From a virus (taxonomy: Duplodnaviria; Heunggongvirae; Uroviricota; Caudoviricetes), in the IMG/VR virus record IMGVR_UViG_2684622617_000023: a stretch of 21,333 bases of DNA; one strand, written 5' to 3'. The stretch's first letter is position 1, and the number at the start of each line of letters is the position of its first letter. Of the stretch, positions 2,299 to 21,333 are shown one piece after another. Both the position numbers and the translations under genes were made by a program. Under the pieces are notes generated by a model. The model did not search any database, had not been told where the DNA came from, and saw only the letters and a program-made list of their open reading frames with translations.

Positions 2299-2376
2299 TC
2301 TTTCAAATGTCCATGTCTGCTATTCGCCTCGCGGTACAGCTTTGCGAAGCTTACCGGAATTGAAGCAGTTTTTACG

Positions 2377-2931
2377 TCAAAAAGCAATAACTTTTTTCTC
2401 TATACCAAAAGCCATAACCATTGGTTTGTACAAAATAAATTCTGCCACCTTTAGCCAATGCTCAATGCGTCTTTCACAGGTTCTTAAACTCCATTCCGGA
2501 TGTGCATCATTCAGCAGTTCAGCCATTTTGCGCTTAGTCATCCCCCGCCCCACATAACGCTGACTCAGAACATTGAGCAGCCCGGGATAACCTGCCAGTA
2601 CTTCACCAATAACCCTGTCGATTATTAACGCCTCTGAATCGGTACAATGCACCAGCCAGCTTTTTTGCTTGCCGTTGATCATATCCCGCAAAAAAGCCTC
2701 AAGTTTAGGTTTGTCCAGACCTGCTTTTTTCATCCTCCGGAGCGCCTCGTTAATTGCCGTTTTTGTCAGCTTTTTAGAGGTCAGCAACTGGTTGAACATA
2801 TTTCCCGTCTTACCGCCGCCAATATACGACCAGCGCCCCCACATACGTAGTTTCCCCTGAATCCAGACACTTTCCAGCGTGGTGAGACGAAGGTGCTCTC
2901 CGCTTTTTCCTGTGTTCGTTGGGTAAATCAT
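2377..2931 (-). CDS. Putative late-gene antiterminator (Q-like), 184 aa
   Basis: ORF 2377..3051 trimmed to ATG 2931-2929, which overlaps the upstream gene's TGA stop (ATGA coupling). It is the last early gene before a terminator and the tRNA region, as for lambdoid Q. Family assignment is by position and memory, not by detected motifs. Confidence 0.5.
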   Translation of the reverse strand: MIYPTNTGKSGEHLRLTTLESVWIQGKLRMWGRWSYIGGGKTGNMFNQLLTSKKLTKTAINEALRRMKKAGLDKPKLEAFLRDMINGKQKSWLVHCTDSEALIIDRVIGEVLAGYPGLLNVLSQRYVGRGMTKRKMAELLNDAHPEWSLRTCERRIEHWLKVAEFILYKPMVMAFGIEKKVIAF

Positions 2932-3218
2932 AAATAACCGTCCTTTCTCCAGATCTCTTGTGTGCGAAAAACACCTTCTGCATGCATCAGGCGCAATTCT
3001 TCTTTGGTGTAATCGCTGGTTTTTACTCTCCCGTCGATTAAATCGTGGCATGAGTTACAGGCAATCGCTGCCTGCATATCGTGTGGCTTTATCGCTGTTC
3101 CGCACGTTCCCGCCAGCCTGTAATGCGCCAGCACAGAGGTTTCGGGATTGTGATTGCAGTAGCCAGGGATTCTGATCTGGCATATCTGGCCTTTAGCCGC
3201 TTTACGTAAATTCACCAT
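2928..3218 (-). CDS. YbcO-like nin-region protein (DUF1364-type, Cys/His-rich, putative nuclease)
   Basis: 96 aa, ...CQIRIPGYCNHNPETSVLAHYRLAGTCGTAIKP...ACNSCHD..., resembling DLP12 YbcO as recalled. Start ATG 3218-3216 overlaps the stop of the upstream gene by 1 nt. Confidence 0.7.
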   Translation of the reverse strand: MVNLRKAAKGQICQIRIPGYCNHNPETSVLAHYRLAGTCGTAIKPHDMQAAIACNSCHDLIDGRVKTSDYTKEELRLMHAEGVFRTQEIWRKDGYL

Positions 3219-3817
3219 TACGCAAACTCCAGTAGTTGTGCGGCCACATTTTCAACTTCCTCCTGAGAGGAGAATTTACGGAACAGAATCCAGTTCCACA
3301 GCACATTCAGTACAGATTTATAAACCTGCTGAAACTCGACTTCGTCCATATTCGCAAAAGCGATGGATTTTGCCCGACGCCCACGGCTACCGTCCGGATA
3401 AATATGCTCGGTGTAAAATCCGGCCTGAATGGTTACCCACTCGCGGAAAGCCTCAAACGACTTTAGCAACGCCGTATCCCGGGTTCTACGAGTCGCAACG
3501 GTGTTAAGGTATTGCTCTGCGGCATCACTCAGGGCTGGCGTGTGTTCCCGACCAACTGATTCGCACAGGTAATCAACGAAACCAGACAGCAGTTCTCGTT
3601 CGCGAGGCGTGATCGCCCCACCGACCGGAGTCCAGTAATCGAATCCCAGTTGCAGGAGTTTGAAAAAACGCTTGTGGAATGCGTAGTTACGCACACGCTT
3701 AAAATCTGCGTGTATCCACTCACCTATTTTGATTTGATGCAGAAAATCGCAACTCTCCGGCGTCGCCGGGAGAAGTAAACCAGAAGAAGTTTGTTTGACC
3801 AGTTGTATATGCGCCAT
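3218..3817 (-). CDS. Conserved lambdoid nin-region protein (199 aa), function unknown
   Basis: Complete ORF with a GAGAG Shine-Dalgarno-like element upstream of ATG 3817; first gene of a coupled three-gene block ending in the Q-like gene. Confidence 0.65.
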   Translation of the reverse strand: MAHIQLVKQTSSGLLLPATPESCDFLHQIKIGEWIHADFKRVRNYAFHKRFFKLLQLGFDYWTPVGGAITPRERELLSGFVDYLCESVGREHTPALSDAAEQYLNTVATRRTRDTALLKSFEAFREWVTIQAGFYTEHIYPDGSRGRRAKSIAFANMDEVEFQQVYKSVLNVLWNWILFRKFSSQEEVENVAAQLLEFA

Positions 3818-3896
3818 TTCTCAATCTCTCGATGGCGCAGTGCAGCAGATGCCAGTTGTTCAAGCTAGCACGCAAATTGTAAACCAGAATGCCAGG

Positions 3897-3925
3897 AAAA
3901 AACAAAACCCGCCGAAGCTGGTTGT
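3897..3925 (-). terminator. Possible tR2-like terminator upstream of the nin block
   Basis: On the - strand: imperfect stem AACCAGC-UUCG-GCGGGUU (one A/G mismatch) followed by UUUUGUUUUUU. Shares the GCUUCGGCGGG core with the terminator at 786..811. Confidence 0.35.
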
Positions 3926-4236
3926 GTGCGGTTGCGTTGAAGTCTCCTAGCCAAAGAGTAGCGGTGACCACTCCCCGCCGATAATCTTAGTTGTTTAATT
4001 TCGTAAGCTAACTAGGCTAAAAGCTCTCTGTTGTCTGCCTGTTGTACAATTAACAAAATGAACAACGAACTAGATATACCAACGCCAGAATGGTGCAACA
4101 AATCCCAAACAACACAGCAATGCAACAATAACATATGTTATTTTCCTCTCACGGGATTCAGTCCTGAATTCTCATAAAGCTAATCTTTTTTTAAAAACAT
4201 ACTGTTAGATCACATGCACTTTCTTTCTTAACATCG

Positions 4237-4264
4237 TTGACTTCGCATGCGAAGCGTTTAAAAT
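4237..4264 (+). promoter_or_regulatory. Candidate sigma70 promoter of the GHKL operon with an embedded 14-bp perfect palindrome (possible operator)
   Basis: TTGACT (4237-4242), 16-nt spacer, TAAAAT (4259-4264), about 50 nt upstream of ATG 4317. CTTCGCATGCGAAG (4241-4254) is a perfect palindrome spanning the -35/spacer. Confidence 0.45.
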
Positions 4265-4316
4265 CAACAATTTGCACTTAAGGTATTTATTTTCCCAAAC
4301 ACATAGAGAGTAAATT

Positions 4317-5708
4317 ATGACTGAGAACACGACTCCAACAGCAGACTTTAGTCCTAGTAAAAGATTTTTTGTAAGTATGCTAACTCGAGATATCGACTTA
4401 AACGATGCCATACTTGATCTGCTTGATAACTGCGTCGATGGGGCTTTACGTACAATAAAAGACACAAAAAAAACTTCAAAACCATATGAAGGATTTTATG
4501 CGAAACTTACGATTAATAAAGATGTCTTTATTATAGAAGACAATTGCGGAGGTATCCCTAAAAGCTTCCGAGAATATGCTTTTAAAATGGGACGACCCCA
4601 TCAAAAAGAAGAAGAAAATGAAGGCACCGTTGGCGTCTATGGTATTGGTATGAAAAGAGCCATTTTTAAAATGGGTAGAGATTGCTCAATACAATCGAAT
4701 AATCCCGATGGCGCATTCACTGTAGATATAACACCTGATTGGATCGATGGTGATGGTTGGAAAATACCGATGCACGAGAGTGACTATGATAACAAAAATC
4801 CAACAGGCACAACTATAGAGATAAAAAAACTCCATTCTAATGTGGCACAAAAATTTAATGAGAGCACATATCTTACTGATCTCTTTTTACAGATAAAACA
4901 CTCATTGTCATTTATTATTCAAAAAGGATTTAAAATAGAATTAAATGGAGTTGTTGTTGAACATAATCCGATTAACATCATAACTGATCATTCTAAAATA
5001 GAACCATACATATATAAAGCTAAAATAGACGATGTTGATATCGATTTAGTTGTTGGCTTCTATAAAAATTTAGAAGATGACAATGATGATGTTTTAGAAA
5101 AAAGGAGTTCTGATGATGCTGGATGGACTGTCATTTGCAATGACCGCGTTGTTCTATATTGTGATAAGACACATCTCACAGGTTGGGGCTTTGCTAATGT
5201 ACCAAGGTTTCATACCCAATTTATAGCAATTTCTGGGGTTGTTCGCTTTACCAGTAAAAACCCAGAAAAATTACCAATAACAACAACGAAACGAGGTGTC
5301 GATCTTAGTTCTACATTGTACAATGATGTACGAAATAAAATGATTGAAGGGATGATGCATTTTATTCGATTCACCAATCAGTGGAAAGGTGAGCATCTTG
5401 AAGAAGGGAAAAAATTACTTAAGTCAGCTCAGTCACATGAAGCTCAATCTTTATTTGAAATTACCCCACAATCAACTCCAGAAGATAAAAAAAATAACTG
5501 GTCCAACCCTAATAGAAACAAAAATGAGTGGCGATATACACCTAAGCTGCCTACCCCAGTAAAAAAAAGCTCTACTGTACGAATAATCTTCACCAGAGAG
5601 AAAGAAGATGTTAAAATTTTATCTAAATATTTCTTTGGACATGAAGATGCTAGCGCTTCTGATGTGGGGATGCAATGCTTTGATACGGTGATTGAAGAGG
5701 TGAAGTGA
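4317..5708 (+). CDS. GHKL (Bergerat-fold, MutL/MORC/Hsp90-like) ATPase, 463 aa
   Basis: N-box LDLLDNCVDGA (Asn38 codon at 4428-4430), G1 box IEDNCGGIP, G2 box GTVGVYGIGMKRA, in canonical order near the N-terminus. AGAGAG Shine-Dalgarno 6 nt before the ATG. Gene looks strongly AT-rich compared with flanking phage genes. Confidence 0.8.
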   Translation: MTENTTPTADFSPSKRFFVSMLTRDIDLNDAILDLLDNCVDGALRTIKDTKKTSKPYEGFYAKLTINKDVFIIEDNCGGIPKSFREYAFKMGRPHQKEEENEGTVGVYGIGMKRAIFKMGRDCSIQSNNPDGAFTVDITPDWIDGDGWKIPMHESDYDNKNPTGTTIEIKKLHSNVAQKFNESTYLTDLFLQIKHSLSFIIQKGFKIELNGVVVEHNPINIITDHSKIEPYIYKAKIDDVDIDLVVGFYKNLEDDNDDVLEKRSSDDAGWTVICNDRVVLYCDKTHLTGWGFANVPRFHTQFIAISGVVRFTSKNPEKLPITTTKRGVDLSSTLYNDVRNKMIEGMMHFIRFTNQWKGEHLEEGKKLLKSAQSHEAQSLFEITPQSTPEDKKNNWSNPNRNKNEWRYTPKLPTPVKKSSTVRIIFTREKEDVKILSKYFFGHEDASASDVGMQCFDTVIEEVK

Positions 5709-6697
5709 TGTCTGGACAATACATTCCCTATCACTTAAGGCATAATAAGTCTATTGATAGAGAGATTTTTCTCGAAAGCCTAAACCTCTTAAGCAAAAGA
5801 CTAAATATTCAAGAATATACATATATAGGTTTTGGTGGTCCGATGCTTGAAGATTTTAGAATCATGCATAATCGTATCGCTCTTTCTGATATGATTTCTC
5901 TCGAAGAACAAGAGTCTACTCACATCAGACAAAAATATAATTTGCCTTATAATTGTATTGATTGTAAGCTAATATCAGCTCATGACTTTATTCTTGATTA
6001 TAGTTTTTCTAAACCATCAATAACATGGTTAGACTATGCCTCCCCGAAAAAAATACAAACGGATCTAGATGATATACACTTACTAAGTACTAAAGTAAGC
6101 TCTTTTGATATTTTGAAGGTCACCTTCCCCATAAATCCTAGTTCTTATTACCAACGTAGAGTTGGAGAAAGTTTAGATATTTTTAAAGAAGCTTTTATTA
6201 ATTCATTAAAATCATTGCTTGGGAAAAAGTATCTTGATTTTAATCTTCAGATATCAAATGCAGATCTTTCAGATCGTAAGATTAAAGCTCTTTTAATACG
6301 AATTATTACAAACGCTTTTAGATCAGCAATAGAACGTGGTCTTTCAGGACGTAAGGATAAGATTCAGTATTACCCATTATCCTTAAATCAATATAATGAT
6401 GGCAGTCATACCATGTTGACAATATCAGGTTTTTTCTCCTCAGAACAAGAATATATAGAGTTATCTAAGGCATGCGACCTTTCTAACTGGCAATTTTATT
6501 CAACAAATTGGGAAGACGTGCAAGAAATAGCAATACCAACACTAACAATTAAAGAAAAGATAAATTTAGATAGTAAACTGCCTGATAAAGAAGCATATCA
6601 GGCAGCCGCTGAAGAGTTCTCTTTAAACGAAAATGAACGGGATAACTATTATAAATACTATAGGTTATACCCTAACTTCCAAAGAATTATGGTTTAA
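5708..6697 (+). CDS. Uncharacterised partner protein of the GHKL ATPase, 329 aa
   Basis: ATG 5708 overlaps the upstream TGA (TGATG) with a GAGG Shine-Dalgarno about 9 nt upstream; the track's start at 5705 is a GTG one codon earlier. No catalytic motif recognisable by eye. The 3' end overlaps the convergent methyltransferase gene by 33 bp. Confidence 0.7.
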   Translation: MSGQYIPYHLRHNKSIDREIFLESLNLLSKRLNIQEYTYIGFGGPMLEDFRIMHNRIALSDMISLEEQESTHIRQKYNLPYNCIDCKLISAHDFILDYSFSKPSITWLDYASPKKIQTDLDDIHLLSTKVSSFDILKVTFPINPSSYYQRRVGESLDIFKEAFINSLKSLLGKKYLDFNLQISNADLSDRKIKALLIRIITNAFRSAIERGLSGRKDKIQYYPLSLNQYNDGSHTMLTISGFFSSEQEYIELSKACDLSNWQFYSTNWEDVQEIAIPTLTIKEKINLDSKLPDKEAYQAAAEEFSLNENERDNYYKYYRLYPNFQRIMV

Positions 6698-7816
6698 ATA
6701 TTCGGGCTGTACTCTTTTATTTAATAAATTGTACAGCCCCTTTAATATATATTCAGCAACTATTGGTGACACGCTATTTCCTATTTGTCTGAAACTATGC
6801 CATTTAGTTACATGAAAGCGAAACCAATCAGGGAAGCCTTGTAATCTAGCAGCTTCTCTTGGTGTAATCACTCTTGGATGATAAGGGTGGATCGGCCTGA
6901 CGGCTTGAAAGCTTCCTTTATCTCTAGCGGTTCCCGCCCTTAAAGTCGGGCAAAAACCATTTGGATCTAATCTTGTAGATCTTGAAATTTTATCAGTTTC
7001 CCCAAAAGATAAGGAAGCATAACGCTCTTGGACGATTTTGCTATGTAATGTTCCGGTACATCCAGATATGATATTATTTTTTAACTTAGCGATCGATTCT
7101 GTATCACCAACATTCCGAGGGATCTGCCCCCATAATTTTTCATAAAATCCCCCTTTTCGATCTTTTTTAATTGTTCGCCAACTCTCAGAGTCTGATTGCC
7201 AATTGGCATCGATAATATCTGGTAATCCATACAAAGCATCTTTTACAGTAACCGGATCAATCATTTTAGGCATAAATACTTCATCTGAAATATCAAGCTT
7301 CAATGATTTTTTTACACCGATAAAAAAATATCTAGTTCGAATAGTTGGAGCACCATAATCAGATGCTTTTACCTTGATGGGATCAAGAATATCATAATCA
7401 CCGCTAACCAAATTAAATGCTTTATTTCTAATGCCAGAATATTTCTCTTGCATAATACCTGGAACATTTTCTGCCAAAAAGAATAATGGCTGTAATTCTG
7501 ATACTAAACGGTAGAAATGCATGTAAAGCTGATTCCTGCTATCATCAGGATTCCCCTTGCCTATTGAACTAAATCCTTGGCACGGAGGACCGCCAATAAT
7601 ACCATCTATGGGCATATCGTTTTTAAAAAAACCCTTAATTATTTCTGCATTTAGTAAAGAAACATCTTCTTGGACGTGCAAACTTCTTGGAAAATTAATT
7701 GCGTGAGTATTAATAGCATGTTGATCAATTTCAACTGCCATTTTAACATCAAATCCAGCACGTGCAGCACCAAGACTTAGACCTCCAACGCCAGAAAACA
7801 AATCTATTACATTCAT
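6665..7816 (-). CDS. DNA (cytosine-5)-methyltransferase, 383 aa
   Basis: C5-MTase motifs in order: motif I FSGVGG, motif IV GPPCQGFS (catalytic Cys), motif VI ENV, motif VIII-like RTRYFFIG, C-terminal motif X GNSVSPIVAEY. AT-rich. Target specificity cannot be read from sequence. Confidence 0.85.
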   Translation of the reverse strand: MNVIDLFSGVGGLSLGAARAGFDVKMAVEIDQHAINTHAINFPRSLHVQEDVSLLNAEIIKGFFKNDMPIDGIIGGPPCQGFSSIGKGNPDDSRNQLYMHFYRLVSELQPLFFLAENVPGIMQEKYSGIRNKAFNLVSGDYDILDPIKVKASDYGAPTIRTRYFFIGVKKSLKLDISDEVFMPKMIDPVTVKDALYGLPDIIDANWQSDSESWRTIKKDRKGGFYEKLWGQIPRNVGDTESIAKLKNNIISGCTGTLHSKIVQERYASLSFGETDKISRSTRLDPNGFCPTLRAGTARDKGSFQAVRPIHPYHPRVITPREAARLQGFPDWFRFHVTKWHSFRQIGNSVSPIVAEYILKGLYNLLNKRVQPEYLNHNSLEVRV

Positions 7817-7848
7817 ATAGTTGCAACGTCTCTTATTAGTTTCTATGT

Positions 7849-7857
7849 ATTATAACA
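7849..7857 (-). promoter_or_regulatory. Extended -10 promoter element (TGnTATAAT) upstream of the methyltransferase gene
   Basis: - strand reads TGTTATAAT with the -10 hexamer at 7854..7849, about 33 nt upstream of ATG 7816; no convincing -35. Confidence 0.35.
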
Positions 7858-8078
7858 CAACTGTTCTTGATGTTTTAACCCCATAAGATAACCTCATAAA
7901 GGCTATCCCTTGAAAATACCGGATCGCATAAATTTAATCTTTCAAAACTACTTGTCTATTAATCGAGCAATTTAAGGTTGTTTTAGTCATGTCGATACCG
8001 ACATAGTTAACTAAACCCATTTCATCGTCCAACAAATGGGGGTAATACACTTTGATTTATAGTCGGGTGGGTTTTTCT

Positions 8079-15947: not shown

Positions 15948-18548
15948 ATGAGCACAAAACCACTCTTCCTGTTACGGAAAGCGAAAAAATCATCCGGTGA
16001 ACCTGACGTCGTCCTGTGGGCAAGCAACGATTTTGAATCGACCTGTGCCACTCTGGACTACCTGATCGTTAAGTCAGGTAAAAAACTGAGCAGCTATTTT
16101 AAAGCTGTTGCCACGAATTTTCCTGTCGTTAATGACCTGCCCGCTGAAGGTGAGATCGATTTTACCTGGAGTGAACGCTATCAACTCAGCAAAGACTCCA
16201 TGACATGGGAACTAAAACCGGGAGCAGCACCAGACAACGCTCACTATCAAGGCAATACCAACGTCAACGGCGAAGACATGACTGAGATTGAGGAGAATAT
16301 GCTACTCCCAATTTCTGGCCAGGAACTGCCCATTCGTTGGCTTGCTCAACACGGCAGCGAAAAACCGGTAACGCACGTTTCACGCGACGGACTCCAGGCA
16401 TTACACATTGCTCGGGCTGAAGAACTACCGGCTGTTACTGCCCTGGCTGTTTCCCACAAAACCAGCCTGCTCGACCCGCTGGAAATTCGCGAACTCCACA
16501 AACTGGTTCGTGACACTGACAAAGTTTTCCCTAATCCTGGTAATTCAAACCTGGGACTGATAACTGCTTTTTTCGAAGCATACCTGAACGCTGACTACAC
16601 CGATCGAGGACTGCTGACAAAAGAGTGGATGAAGGGTAATCGTGTTTCACACATCACTCGCACGGCTTCCGGTGCTAATGCTGGCGGCGGAAACCTCACC
16701 GATCGCGGCGAAGGTTTCGTACACGATCTGACGTCACTGGCGCGCGACGTAGCCACTGGCGTACTGGCCCGTTCAATGGATCTGGACATCTATAACCTTC
16801 ATCCGGCACACGCTAAACGCATTGAGGAAATTATCGCTGAAAATAAACCGCCCTTTTCTGTTTTCCGCGACAAATTCATCACCATGCCTGGCGGGCTGGA
16901 TTATTCCCGCGCCATCGTGGTTGCGTCCGTAAAAGAAGCACCAATTGGGATCGAGGTCATCCCCGCGCACGTCACTGAATATCTGAACAAAGTACTGACT
17001 GAAACCGATCATGCCAACCCTGATCCGGAAATCGTGGATATTGCCTGCGGTCGCTCCTCTGCCCCGATGCCGCAGCGAGTAACAGAAGAAGGAAAACAGG
17101 ATGATGAAGAAAAACCGCAACCATCTGGAACAACGGCAGTTGAACAGGGAGAGGCTGAAACAATGGAACCGGACGCAACTGAACATCATCAGGACACGCA
17201 GCCGCTGGATGCTCAGTCACAGGTAAATTCTGTTGATGCGAAATATCAGGAACTGCGGGCAGAACTCCATGAAGCCCGGAAAAACATTCCATCAAAAAAT
17301 CCTGTCGATGCCGATAAATTGCTTGCTGCATCACGTGGTGAATTTGTTGACGGAATTAGCGACCCGAACGATCCGAAATGGGTAAAGGGGATCCAGACTC
17401 GCGATTGTGTGTACCAGAACCAGCCAGAAACGGAAAAAACCAGCCCGGATATGAATCAACCTGAGCCAGTAGTGCAACAGGAACCGGAAATAGCCTGCAA
17501 TGCCTGCGGCCAGACTGGCGGGGATAACTGCCCTGACTGTGGTGCGGTGATGGGCGACGCAACATACCAGGAAACATTCGATGAAGAGAGTCAGGTTGAA
17601 GCTAAGGAAAATGATCCGGAGGAAATGGAAGGCGCTGAACATCCGCACAATGAGAATGCTGGCAGCGATCCGCATCGCGATTGCAGTGATGAAACTGGCG
17701 AAGTCGCAGATCCCGTAATCGTAGAAGACATAGAGCCAGGTATTTATTACGGAATTTCGAATGAGAATTACCACGCGGGTCCCGGTGTCAGTAAGTCTCA
17801 GCTCGATGACATTGCTGATACTCCGGCACTGTATTTGTGGCGTAAAAATGCCCCCGTGGACACCACAAAGACAAAAACGCTCGATTTAGGAACCGCTTTC
17901 CACTGCCGGGTACTTGAGCCGGAAGAATTCAGTAACCGCTTTATCGTAGCACCTGAATTTAACCGCCGGACAAACTCCGGAAAAGAAGAAGAGAAAGCGT
18001 TTCTGAGGGAATGCGCAAGCACAGGAAAAACGGTTATCACTGCCGAAGAAGGCCGGAAAATTGAACTCATGTATCAGAGCGTTATGGCTTTGCCGCTGGG
18101 GCAATGGCTTGTTGAAAGCGCCGGACACGCTGAATCATCAATTTACTGGGAAGATCCTGAAACAGCAATTTTGTGTCGGTGCCGTCCGGACAAAATTATC
18201 CCTGAATTTCACTGGATCATGGACGTGAAAACTACGGCGGATATTCAACGATTCAAAACCGCTTATTACGACTACCGCTATCACGTTCAGGATGCATTCT
18301 ACAGTGACGGTTATGAAGCACAGTTTGGAGTGCAGCCAACTTTCGTTTTTCTGGTTGCCAGCACAACTATTGAATGCGGACGTTATCCGGTTGAAATTTT
18401 CATGATGGGCGAAGAAGCAAAACTGGCAGGTCAGCTGGAATATCACCGCAATCTGCGAACCCTGGCTGACTGCCTCAATACCGATGAATGGCCAGCTATT
18501 AAGACGTTATCACTGCCCCGCTGGGCTAAGGAATATGCAAATGACTAA
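15948..18548 (+). CDS. recE: Exodeoxyribonuclease VIII (RecE), full length 866 aa
   Basis: Single uninterrupted 866-aa ORF with a GAGG Shine-Dalgarno; C-terminal nuclease region and Cys-cluster [16 protein letters not shown]; length matches Rac RecE. Confidence 0.95.
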
Positions 18549-19350
18549 GCAACCACCAATCGCAAAAGCCGATCTGCAAAAAACTCAGGGAAACCGTGCA
18601 CCAGCAGCAATTAAAAATAACGACGTGATTAGTTTTATTAACCAGCCATCAATGAAAGAGCAACTGGCAGCAGCTCTTCCACGCCATATGACGGCTGAAC
18701 GTATGATCCGTATCGCCACCACAGAAATTCGTAAAGTTCCGGCGTTAGGAAACTGTGACACTATGAGTTTTGTCAGTGCAATCGTACAGTGTTCACAGCT
18801 CGGACTTGAGCCCGGTAGCGCCCTCGGTCATGCATATTTACTGCCTTTTGGTAATAAAAACGAAAAGAGCGGTAAAAAAAACGTTCAGCTAATCATTGGC
18901 TATCGAGGCATGATTGATCTGGCTCGCCGTTCAGGTCAAATCGCCAGCTTGTCAGCCCGTGTTGTCCGTGAAGGTGACGAGTTTAATTTCGAATTTGGCC
19001 TTGATGAAAAGTTAATACACCGCCCAGGAGAAAACGAAGATGCCCCTGTTACCCACGTCTATGCTGTCGCAAGACTGAAAGACGGAGGTACTCAGTTTGA
19101 AGTTATGACGCGCAAACAGATTGAGCTGGTGCGCAGCCAGAGTAAAGCTGGTAATAACGGGCCGTGGGTAACTCACTGGGAAGAAATGGCAAAGAAAACG
19201 GCTATTCGTCGCCTGTTCAAATATCTGCCCGTATCAATTGAGATCCAGCGTGCAGTATCAATGGATGAAAAGGAACCACTGACAATCGATCCTGCAGATT
19301 CCTCTGTATTAACCGGGGAATACAGTGTAATCGATAATTCAGAGGAATAA
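18541..19350 (+). CDS. recT: RecT single-strand annealing protein, 269 aa
   Basis: Track ORF trimmed to [14 protein letters not shown]...; ATG overlaps the 3' end of recE by 8 nt. Confidence 0.95.
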
Positions 19351-19405: not shown

Positions 19406-19600
19406 ATGAGATATGACAATGTTAAACCATGTCCATTTTGTGGTTGTCCATCAGTAACGGTGAAAGCCATTTCAGGATATTACCGAGCGAAGTGTAACGG
19501 ATGCGAATCCCGAACCGGTTATGGTGGAAGTGAAAAAGAAGCACTCGAACGATGAAATAAACGAACCACTGGAAATAATAATGGAGGTGTTCATGTATAA
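19406..19600 (+). pseudogene. ralR: ralR (restriction-alleviation Lar / type I toxin) with an in-frame TGA at codon 50
   Basis: From ATG 19406 the frame reads MRYDNVKPCPFCGCPSVTVKAISGYYRAKCNGCESRTGYGGSEKEALER, then TGA at 19553-19555, then NKRTTGNNNGGVHV to TAA 19598-19600. 49 + 1 + 14 = 64 codons, the length I recall for K-12 RalR, where this codon is TGG (Trp). Confidence 0.6.
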
Positions 19601-19781
19601 AATTACCGCCACTATTGAAAAGGAAGGTGGCACTCCTACTAACTGGACAAGATATTCAAAATCTAAACTAACGAAATCAGAATGCGAAAAAATGCTCTCA
19701 GGTAAAAAAGAAGCAGGCGTTTCCAGAGAGCAGAAAGTAAAACTGATAAATTTTAATTGCGAGAAACTTCAGTCCTCGTGA
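19593..19781 (+). CDS. ydaC: Small Rac protein, 62 aa
   Basis: ATG 19593 with a GGAGG Shine-Dalgarno 6 nt upstream (MYKITATIEKEGGTPTNW...); the longer track ORF starting 19521 lacks a ribosome-binding site. Confidence 0.65.
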   Translation: MYKITATIEKEGGTPTNWTRYSKSKLTKSECEKMLSGKKEAGVSREQKVKLINFNCEKLQSS

Positions 19782-20097: not shown

Positions 20098-21333
20098 ATG
20101 TCTAAATTACCAACAGGTGTCGAGATTCGAGGTAAATACATTCGCATCTGGTTCATGTTTCGAGGAAAACGATGTCGGGAAACATTGAAAGGCTGGGAGG
20201 TTACTAACAGTAACATTAAAAAAGCCGGGAATTTAAGAGCGTTGATAGTTCATGAAATCAATTCCGGTGAGTTTGAGTATTTAAGACGTTTTCCCCAGTC
20301 CAGCACTGGGGCAAAAATGGTGACAACGAGGGTCATAAAAACGTTCGGGGAGCTTTGTGATATCTGGACAAAAATTAAAGAAACAGAGTTAACAACAAAC
20401 ACAATGAAGAAAACGAAATCACAATTAAAAACACTCAGGATAATAATTTGTGAGAGTACTCCGATATCGCATATTCGTTATAGCGATATCTTAAACTACC
20501 GGAATGAACTGCTGCATGGAGAAACGCTTTACCTGGATAATCCAAGATCCAACAAAAAAGGAAGAACCGTGCGCACAGTTGATAACTATATCGCCCTGCT
20601 CTGTTCGTTGTTACGTTTTGCGTATCAGTCGGGATTTATATCAACCAAACCATTTGAAGGAGTAAAGAAATTACAGAGAAACAGAATAAAGCCTGACCCG
20701 TTATCTAAAACAGAATTCAATGCATTAATGGAAAGTGAAAAAGGACAGAGCCAGAACTTGTGGAAATTTGCCGTATACTCCGGGCTTCGTCACGGGGAAC
20801 TGGCTGCTCTGGCGTGGGAGGATGTGGATTTCGAGAAGGGAGTTGTGAATGTCAGAAGAAACCTGACGATACTGGATATGTTCGGTCCCCCAAAAACAAA
20901 TGCGGGGATCCGGACGGTAACACTACTGCAGCCTGCTCTTGAAGCACTGAAGGAGCAATACAAACTGACCGGGCATCATCGCAAAAGCGAAATCACCTTT
21001 TATCATCGGGAGTACGGCAGAACCGAAAAGCAAAAACTGCATTTTGTTTTCATGCCCAGGGTGTGTAACGGAAAACAAAAACCTTATTACTCGGTAAGCA
21101 GTTTGGGGGCAAGGTGGAATGCAGCAGTAAAACGTGCTGGTATTCGCCGCCGTAATCCGTACCATACGCGGCATACTTTTGCCTGCTGGCTGTTGACGGC
21201 AGGAGCGAACCCGGCATTTATAGCCAGCCAAATGGGGCATGAAACTGCGCAGATGGTGTATGAAATTTACGGTATGTGGATTGATGACATGAACGACGAA
21301 CAGGTAGCCATGTTGAATGCGCGGTTATCATAG
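20098..21333 (+). CDS. intR: Tyrosine site-specific integrase, 411 aa
   Basis: Full-length ORF with the C-terminal catalytic region (...HTRHTFACWLLTAGANPAFIASQMGHETAQMVYEIYGMW...); the window ends at its TAG stop. Confidence 0.95.
   Translation: MSKLPTGVEIRGKYIRIWFMFRGKRCRETLKGWEVTNSNIKKAGNLRALIVHEINSGEFEYLRRFPQSSTGAKMVTTRVIKTFGELCDIWTKIKETELTTNTMKKTKSQLKTLRIIICESTPISHIRYSDILNYRNELLHGETLYLDNPRSNKKGRTVRTVDNYIALLCSLLRFAYQSGFISTKPFEGVKKLQRNRIKPDPLSKTEFNALMESEKGQSQNLWKFAVYSGLRHGELAALAWEDVDFEKGVVNVRRNLTILDMFGPPKTNAGIRTVTLLQPALEALKEQYKLTGHHRKSEITFYHREYGRTEKQKLHFVFMPRVCNGKQKPYYSVSSLGARWNAAVKRAGIRRRNPYHTRHTFACWLLTAGANPAFIASQMGHETAQMVYEIYGMWIDDMNDEQVAMLNARLS

Follow-up and report, generated by a model that had tools for sequence, protein, structure and literature searches.

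A nuclease-free prophage cassette of a MORC-like ATPase, a methyltransferase-fold partner and a C5-cytosine methylase as a candidate restriction-modification-like module

Introduction

A role for MORC and paraMORC1-5 ATPases in restriction-modification (R-M) systems, alongside cytosine methylases and Vsr, was predicted by Iyer, Abhiman and Aravind (2008; PMC2292703). In this study, we analyzed a three-gene cassette in a stretch of 21,333 nucleotides from a Caudoviricetes virus (IMG/VR record IMGVR_UViG_2684622617_000023); the whole stretch is called the window. The cassette encodes a GHKL ATPase, a second protein (the partner) and a C5-cytosine methylase. The original prediction took it for a candidate defence module and stated that GHKL/MORC ATPases beside methylases had been predicted to be R-M-like; for cytosine methylases, this statement agrees with the literature (PMC2292703). 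The computational checks proposed with the prediction (protein families, co-occurrence with the methylase and the MORC precedent) were passed, and the defence reading is partly supported.

As in the paraMORC1 and MORC R-M operons (PMC2292703), the ATPase combines GHKL and S5 domains, keeps its ATP motifs intact and ends in a C-terminal extension of a distinct kind. Cytosine methylases and Vsr lie nearby in both, and sometimes an HNH gene or a second MORC-type GHKL protein is present. However, that account describes neither the methyltransferase-fold partner nor the obligate coupling of the ATPase with it, nor that the majority of loci are free of nuclease and helicase. The cassette is a compact version of the predicted MORC R-M kind, without nuclease or helicase and with a methyltransferase-fold protein as the second component. 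In the literature that we searched, no characterization of bacterial MORC-type ATPases linked to cytosine methylases was found.

VcSduA, a Shedu type I-D (paraMORC3) protein, was experimentally validated as anti-phage, and its ATP-binding residue is required for defence (PMC12137116). It likewise has a paraMORC-type GHKL domain, which is thought to gate an effector, and it is found on mobile islands (PMC12137116). However, in VcSduA a DUF4263 PD-(D/E)xK nuclease is fused to the ATPase within one protein and there is no methylase, whereas the cassette has a separate methyltransferase-fold effector candidate, a linked C5 methylase and no DUF4263 match. The pair formed by a HEF_HK protein with a Response_reg_2 protein (PMC8011034) also consists of two proteins, one of the HATPase_c_3 type and a small one, whose genes are in tight linkage with each other and with those for DNA_methylase and Vsr; no nuclease is obvious there either and, like the cassette, the pair has only been predicted. 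The HEF_HK pair belongs to the PF19191 and PF19192 families, and its partner is receiver-like, in contrast to the methyltransferase fold of the cassette partner.

Type II 5-methylcytosine (5mC) R-M systems with Vsr resemble the cassette in several respects: the methylase stands beside the "R" genes in variable orientation, Vsr is frequent, the unit is mobile, decay apparently begins in the R arm, and the behaviour is addiction-like. However, the cassette has no endonuclease fold, and its candidate R arm is a two-protein ATP-dependent machine. This arm keeps about 43% identity across phyla, whereas ordinary restriction enzymes are fast-evolving orphans. With BREX, the cassette shares methylation-based discrimination of self from non-self, a methyltransferase-fold protein that may join a restrictive complex with an ATPase, and the lack of a dedicated nuclease. 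However, there is no homology to BREX components; the mark is 5mC instead of N6-methyladenine (m6A), and the genes number three instead of six.

Eukaryotic MORC proteins and SMCHD1 act in DNA-methylation-linked silencing through ATP-dependent dimerization and clamping of DNA. They are the best structural match to the cassette ATPase. In contrast to them, the cassette ATPase has no CW or coiled-coil domains, uses Asp instead of Glu as the general base, and has another C-terminal extension and a dedicated methyltransferase-fold partner. A bacterial R-M origin has been proposed for the eukaryotic MORCs (PMC2292703).

Results

Gene organization of the cassette

The window is an Sp10-type lambdoid prophage; over 2323-17150, it shares 99.99% identity with prophage Sp10 of E. 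coli O157:H7 Sakai. The features of the cassette are as follows.

4317-5708, + strand: MORC-like (paraMORC1-type) GHKL and S5 ATPase, 463 aa, ECs_1955
5708-6697, + strand: Methyltransf_35 (PF20553) partner with a class-I S-adenosylmethionine (SAM)-methyltransferase fold, 329 aa, ECs_1954
6665-7816, - strand: C5-cytosine DNA methyltransferase, 383 aa, ECs_1953, DNA_methylase E 2.6e-61
4237-4264, + strand: predicted sigma-70 promoter of the ATPase-partner operon, TTGACT-16-TAAAAT, 10/12 match to the consensus
7849-7878, - strand: predicted methylase promoter, TTAAAA-18-TATAAT, extended -10 (TG upstream), 10/12 match to the consensus
4241-4254: perfect 14-nt palindrome CTTCGCATGCGAAG, filling the spacer of the predicted operon promoter
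6704-6739: inverted repeat GGGCTGTAC...GTACAGCCC, 14-nt arms, 86% complementary, 8-nt loop
4230-7878: conserved mobile unit, three genes and two outward-flanking promoters

The three open reading frames (ORFs) were predicted at these positions from the sequence, and they match the Sakai genes. The predicted layout, a two-gene + strand operon convergent on a - strand methyltransferase, was confirmed, and the comparison with Sp10 agrees with the placement of the cassette between the replication block and the nin/Q block. The ATG of the partner at 5708 overlaps the stop codon of the ATPase (ATGA), and the operon is translationally coupled. The convergent partner and methylase genes share 33 bp at their 3' ends. 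The methylase is read in the direction of phage early-right transcription, and the ATPase-partner operon is antisense to it.

The two promoters named here were chosen by position and conservation; across the region, promoter-like sites are no commoner than in shuffled sequence. In three diverged cassettes, the -35 TTGAC and the -10 TAAAAT of the operon promoter are invariant. The TGTGnTAnAAT element of the methylase promoter is also kept in the three, and the shared unit stops at the -35 of this promoter. The outer arms alone of the palindrome CTTCGCATGCGAAG are kept in the Klebsiella and IMG/VR cassettes. This palindrome could be an operator, or a methylation-sensitive site which couples the expression of the pair to the activity of the methylase. 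The inverted repeat at 6704-6739 begins 7 nt past the stop codon of the partner, within the non-conserved 3' tail of the methylase gene, and is a possible terminator or attenuator of the convergent transcripts. A suspected small upstream ORF at about 4059 was rejected; it is out of frame and outside the conserved unit.

In Sakai, the ECs1954 and ECs1955 transcripts drop by log2 2.6 and 3.2, respectively, on entering stationary phase, and both belong to one expression cluster with growth-related genes (PMC2241611). Therefore, the pair is transcribed in the growing lysogen, where both transcripts were detected.

ATPase

The ATPase scored above the HATPase_c_3 cutoff in the Pfam scan. Its GHKL motifs, D34-x3-N38-x2-D41, D75-N-C-G-G, G106-x-Y-G-I-G and G164-T, are invariant in 34 homologues. 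Asn38 (codon 4428-4430), which had been picked out as the N-box Asn, is indeed this invariant residue, in the first of these motifs. The catalytic Glu of the first GHKL motif is replaced by an invariant Asp (D34), as it is in the paralogous GHKL proteins at some loci. The GHKL domain is followed by an S5-fold transducer with a conserved basic residue, the lysine K325, as in MORC and paraMORC proteins. Residues from about 330 to 463 form a conserved helical extension without invariant acidic or His residues.

MORC proteins were the best structural match of the ATPase, far ahead of MutL. Sequence matches to MORC3 and MORC4 in a profile search were marginal (E 0.03-0.19); MORC proteins proper are marked by a GhXhhpXXRhl motif in the S5 domain (PMC2292703). 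Members of the paraMORC1 family are described as keeping their motifs intact and carrying a C-terminal extension of a distinct kind, some of them beside a MORC protein and a methylase and some beside HNH (PMC2292703). The ATPase fits this published description, on which its tentative assignment to the family is based.

Partner

The partner had been described as a protein without any motif that could be placed. This was not the case. It is a full-length member of PF20553 (300.4 bits against a cutoff of 27, E 2e-89; residues 2-329 on profile positions 1-308 of 309), which Pfam labels Methyltransf_35, "putative O-methyltransferase". The predicted structure has the elements of a class-I methyltransferase: a seven-stranded Rossmann-like sheet with an antiparallel strand 7, a Gly-rich loop after beta-1, an acidic residue ending beta-2 and a motif IV ending beta-4. 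The best structural matches were all RNA methyltransferases (RsmD, Trm1, Erm, KsgA, METTL16 and RlmJ), with RsmD and Trm1 closest. Thus, despite the family name, the closest folds are those of N-methyltransferases acting on RNA.

In 63 diverse members of the family, R11, K14, R18, Y39, R74, W107, D109, T139, Y229 and E283 are invariant. At least 90% conservation was found for G43 in the Gly-rich loop after beta-1, E66 at the end of beta-2, E48, D49, H54 and D231. Because a pseudo-enzyme would be expected to lose its conserved positions, we infer that the partner binds SAM or a related ligand; to judge from fold and motifs, it would also bind a phosphate-rich substrate such as nucleic acid. The family comprises about 2,100 clusters at 50% identity, and every one is a stand-alone protein.

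Methylase and the search for a nuclease

The methylase had been predicted to be a Dcm-type enzyme, and its motifs are those of a catalytically complete C5 methyltransferase: I (FxGxG), IV (PCQ), VI (ENV), VIII (RxR) and X (GNSV). It scored 208 bits with PF00145, and it has a target-recognition domain with a TL dipeptide. The enzyme is the protein of PDB entry 3g7u (E 1.3e-254), whose crystal structure spans residues 1-367. The C-terminal tail (residues 361-383) is unconserved.

No nuclease domain was detected in the three cassette proteins with Pfam or PADLOC. The PD-(D/E)XK, HNH, GIY-YIG or PLD endonuclease which adjoins the methylase in a Type II R-M system was not found in the cassette. PADLOC-DB v2, which includes MZA, BREX, DISARM and Druantia, gave zero matches for the ATPase and the partner; its matches were restricted to the methylase, with the generic MTase_II (E 2e-98), DruM and DrmMII models. 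NCBIfam has no model for the ATPase or the partner (MzaB reached 12.4 bits against a cutoff of 850), and both fall into PHROGs families of unknown function. The Pfam scan of the cassette gave no match to DUF4263, nor to PF19191 and PF19192 at E up to 1. Profile searches of the ATPase and the partner against PDB sequences yielded nothing useful. Homology to a housekeeping or phage-structural family would have spoken against a defence module, and neither + strand protein belongs to such a family.

Full-text searching of the literature found no functional study of the pair, PF20553, 3G7U or the bacterial MORC-methylase family. The Sakai locus tags appeared in two papers only, one on comparative genomic hybridization and one on the transcriptome.

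Conservation of the gene set

One genome per species was scanned with an alignment of the partner, and 80 loci were obtained from Proteobacteria, Cyanobacteria, Firmicutes, Verrucomicrobia, Chloroflexota, Latescibacterota, Poribacteria, Acidobacteria and others. A viral survey of IMG/VR gave 49 loci. The ATPase and the partner are adjacent in 129 of the 129 surveyed loci where both are visible. The ATPase gene directly precedes the partner gene on the same strand; it is intact in 79 of the 80 genome loci and decayed in the remaining one (L022), and the order also holds in the viral loci. The overlap of the two genes is mostly 4 nt (ATGA).

The original prediction had named conserved co-occurrence with the methylase as a check, and this linkage proved to be conserved across phyla and in phages. 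A C5 methylase adjoins the pair in 67 of the 80 genome loci (33 upstream co-directional, 26 downstream convergent, 7 downstream co-directional and 1 upstream divergent). The full triad is present in all 49 viral loci, in 47 of them convergent as in the window. The linked methylases form one conserved subfamily. In distant phyla, identity to the window proteins is 50-56% for the methylase, about 43% for the ATPase and about 26% for the partner. Five ATPase homologues from other taxa (P0103, P0091, P0104, P0125 and P0163) were also inspected; Methyltransf_35 adjoins the ATPase in 5/5 and the methylase in 4/5, and two of these triads are inserted between Type I hsdS and hsdR. In a Gemmatimonadetes metagenome-assembled genome (MAG; L142) and in L144, the Dcm-ATPase-partner triad stands immediately upstream of a Type I hsdR. 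In L144, hsdM and hsdS are on the other side of the triad; L142 begins at a contig end.

A Vsr gene is found within 3 kb in 25 of the 80 genome loci. HNH_5 genes are present in 6 of the 80, and in 3 the nearest neighbours include HNH_2 genes. Neither a Vsr nor an HNH gene was found in the 49 viral loci. Eight of the 80 genome loci (L019, L020, L023, L024, L028, L030, L036 and L040) carry a second GHKL paralogue beside the methylase, a protein of 570-590 aa encoded in an operon with it. At another locus, in a Rhodoferax MAG (L016:13400-15709), two diverged ATPase/Methyltransf_35 pairs flank one C5 methylase and an HNH_5 gene. Therefore, the family has multi-ATPase variants.

The nearest neighbours of the loci are mixed (integrases, Tn7 genes, phage genes, HsdR, ResIII and housekeeping genes). 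The idea that one more gene is conserved with the triad was considered and rejected; clustering of neighbouring ORFs and scans of the nearest flanking genes gave only an HNH gene in a minority of loci, besides mobile-element genes and other R-M genes.

Insert and its borders

The AT-rich compositional island noticed in the original prediction was confirmed. The GC content is 0.349 in 3941-8068 and 0.467 elsewhere in the window; in sliding windows, it is 0.31-0.37 between about 4000 and 8000 and about 0.5 in the flanks. The junctions were set by comparison with an O121 prophage (L089) which has both flanks in common with the window and lacks the cassette. Similarity to L089 ends at position 3940 of the window and restarts at 8069. 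Thus, the insert spans 3941-8068 (4,128 bp). Two elements lie just outside the junctions.

3897-3925, - strand: terminator-like hairpin with a T-run, outside the left junction, kept in L089 with a better stem
8079-8114: inverted repeat, 14-nt arms, 93% complementary, outside the right junction, kept in L089

Both elements had been predicted to bound the cassette. They exist as described. However, they are not cassette ends, since their presence in the cassette-less prophage assigns them to the phage backbone.

In L089, the slot (1842-2159) carries a 318-bp hokD/sok toxin-antitoxin module where the window has the cassette. The slot has the DUF1367 nin-region gene on one side and the upstream early genes on the other, and hokD/sok occupies it in many other E. 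coli prophages. Therefore, the slot seems to be a hotspot that exchanges addiction or defence cargo.

A cassette in a Klebsiella aerogenes prophage (L090) shows about 79-80% DNA identity over exactly 4230-7878, and that of an IMG/VR contig (L104) the same identity over 4232-7878. The backbones of both differ from that of the window. In K. aerogenes, the cassette occupies the corresponding slot, and its orientation with respect to the replication genes is that of the window. Since the DNA similarity runs from just upstream of the pair promoter to the -35 of the methylase promoter, the mobile unit consists of the three genes and the two promoters, about 3.65 kb. No DNA-level match of the cassette was found in the phage collection.

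Distribution in E. coli and decay

Of 5,426 complete E. coli genomes, 173 (O157:H7, O111:H8 and O103:H2) carry the cassette, in one copy each. The copies are always at least 99% identical and always chromosomal, never on the plasmid records of those genomes. F6294 is the only E. coli genome in which the cassette has lost the methylase; a deletion has removed the whole methylase gene together with the 3' two thirds of the partner gene. In L022, the ATPase is fragmented and Dcm and Vsr are intact, and in L140, the partner is frameshifted and Dcm is intact. F6294, L022 and L140 are anecdotal cases. Among the surveyed loci, there was no case of an intact ATPase-partner operon with a broken adjacent methylase.

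Discussion

Based on the sequence comparisons, we consider that the cassette is probably, although by no means certainly, a self-contained mobile module for 5mC-keyed, R-M-like defence or addiction which works without a nuclease. The pair is read as the restrictive arm because of the linkage of the three genes, the shuffling of gene order, the frequent Vsr, the one-sided decay and the placement in defence islands and mobile elements. Vsr linkage is typical of 5mC R-M systems.

In such a module, the methylase would mark a fixed sequence on host and prophage DNA, and the complex of ATPase and partner would be the "restriction" arm. The partner would use its nucleic-acid methyltransferase fold, probably with SAM, to interrogate DNA, and would either discriminate unmethylated targets or chemically modify them. 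The ATPase would dimerize on ATP binding and form a MORC-type clamp on DNA. As the outcome, the replication or expression of unmethylated incoming DNA would be blocked. The block may be direct, by entrapment or covalent modification, or the DNA may be handed over to a nuclease acting in trans; a minority of loci have a linked HNH gene. The methylase would be read from its own promoter and also with the early lytic operon, and the antisense pair would be expressed in the growing lysogen. This phage arrangement would favour methylation before restriction, protect the lysogen from superinfection and possibly have a role in addiction.

Two non-cutting forms of this mechanism may be put forward tentatively. 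In one, the partner, gated by the MORC-like clamp, would put a toxic or replication-blocking methyl mark on DNA lacking 5mC; in the other, the ATPase, with the partner as its guide, would entrap and silence such DNA. We regard this proposal as a possible rather than a probable one. If either form is true, a new restriction mode would be at hand, together with a tractable E. coli model that couples MORC ATPases to cytosine methylation. If it is the entrapment by the ATPase, the cassette would represent a bacterial forerunner of the methylation-linked silencing by eukaryotic MORCs.

Several observations weigh against the R-M-like module. In seven loci whose flanks are long enough to tell, no C5 methylase adjoins the pair (five cyanobacterial loci, L042 and L059); the latter two sit in defence islands with DISARM-like helicase/DUF1998, MmeI-type, HEPN and AbiEii-like genes. 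If the pair is toxic where methylation is lacking, these seven genomes would need an unlinked methylase. Between the pair and the methylase, sequence distances are only weakly correlated (Spearman 0.12-0.16). Since an invariant Asp stands in place of the canonical Glu, ATP turnover by the ATPase may be slow or different. The substrate of the partner and its use of SAM are deduced only from fold and motifs.

The other explanations which we considered are less well supported than the R-M-like one. The cassette might be a methylation-keyed abortive infection system or toxin, in which the partner methylates RNA (rRNA or tRNA) or protein and shuts the cell down when the ATPase senses infection, and the methylase serves as the self mark or the antidote. 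The exclusively RNA-methyltransferase structural matches of the partner, the lack of a nuclease in the cassette, its replacement of hok/sok at the same prophage slot, and the precedent of VcSduA for the gating of an effector by a GHKL domain (PMC12137116) all speak for this explanation; nevertheless, we judge it unlikely. The hok/sok slot would equally suit selfish addiction, in which the three genes would stabilize the prophage or island through post-segregational killing and bring no appreciable benefit against phages. The mobility, AT-richness and recent acquisition of the cassette (at least 99% identity in 173 enterohaemorrhagic E. coli (EHEC) genomes) and the loss of the methylase solely together with that of the partner are in line with it. 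However, addiction and defence are compatible in R-M systems, and the occurrence of the module across phyla in defence islands and within Type I R-M loci suggests that defence has been selected for, so that addiction alone has a poor chance of being correct.

To a repair or maintenance accessory, in which a MutL-like ATPase and its partner aid Vsr-type very-short-patch repair or limit the mutational cost of 5mC, we give an equally poor chance. The pair is linked far more often to the methylase than to Vsr, Vsr was seen in none of the viral loci, and the pair occurs in defence islands without methylase or Vsr. Furthermore, the ATPase matches MORC much better than MutL, and a SAM-methyltransferase-fold partner would be left unexplained. 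Least likely, in our view, is a purely modifying or anti-restriction function: both methyltransferase-fold proteins would place marks on DNA (one on each strand of a site, for example, or at two of its positions), and the ATPase would load them; phage and host DNA would be shielded from other restriction systems, with no restriction exerted by the module itself. Two methyltransferase-fold proteins without a nuclease, the frequency of orphan methylases in phages, and the co-transcription of the methylase with phage early genes would fit this function. However, the pair, which lies antisense to lytic transcription, is expressed in the lysogen and is also found without a C5 methylase; ATP-dependent clamps are not known as partners of modification methylases; and the shuffled gene order, the decay pattern and the defence-island contexts resemble those of R-M systems. 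Modification-dependent (Type IV-like) restriction was rejected, because the pair is linked positively, not negatively, to the methylase.

The cassette offers a minimal unit with its own promoters in the prophage of a well-studied pathogen, and the structure of its methylase has already been solved. If it is a defence system, its mechanism has not yet been described, and current defence-annotation tools miss it. The cassette may affect the phage susceptibility, the prophage stability and the 5mC methylome of EHEC O157, O111 and O103 strains.

Other features of the prophage

The remaining features of the window which we annotated are listed here.

minus strand: phage early-right operon, with a cro-like gene, replication genes, nin-like genes and a Q-type antiterminator
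10799-12340, - strand: replication genes of the early-right operon
2928-3817, - strand: nin-like genes of the early-right operon
starting at about 2377, - strand: Q-type antiterminator of the early-right operon
1106-1819, - strand: AraC-family regulator, HTH_AraC E 3e-13
1955-2275, - strand: 106-aa protein without a Pfam match

Bases 1-1,078 of the window are just 98% identical to Sakai, in contrast to 99.99% for the rest. Two phage-borne tRNA genes (825-901 and 1002-1077, - strand) are located upstream of the late region. One is tRNA-Arg (TCT); the other has a CAT anticodon and is assigned to Met by ARAGORN and to Ile (ileZ) in the Sakai record.

A 1,244-bp segment (1079-2322) extends from the tRNA genes to the Q antiterminator gene. 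It is missing from Sakai Sp10 and also from the best-matching complete genomes among those listed (94% coverage, two pieces). An insertion sequence (IS) element was considered and rejected for this segment, which encodes the AraC-family regulator. Since IS-like terminal repeats are absent, it looks like another moron. The AraC-family gene may be akin to the prophage-encoded AraC-like regulators of EHEC.

A type I toxin-antitoxin pair was found at 19521-19781 (+ strand) and 19599-19777 (- strand). The RalA antitoxin small RNA (Rfam RF02694, 225 bits) is antisense to a DUF1187 ORF (E 2e-38), which is presumably the RalR toxin. The pair adjoins recE (15948-18548), recT (18484-19350) and the integrase gene (20098-21333). 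The Sakai and RefSeq annotations put further genes of the exclusion or toxin type at 9577-10014, 14175-14786 and 12418-12840, all on the - strand; they comprise genes for a "phage exclusion protein" (DUF977) and for a superinfection-exclusion protein, and members of the YdaT/YdaS family by the repressor region.

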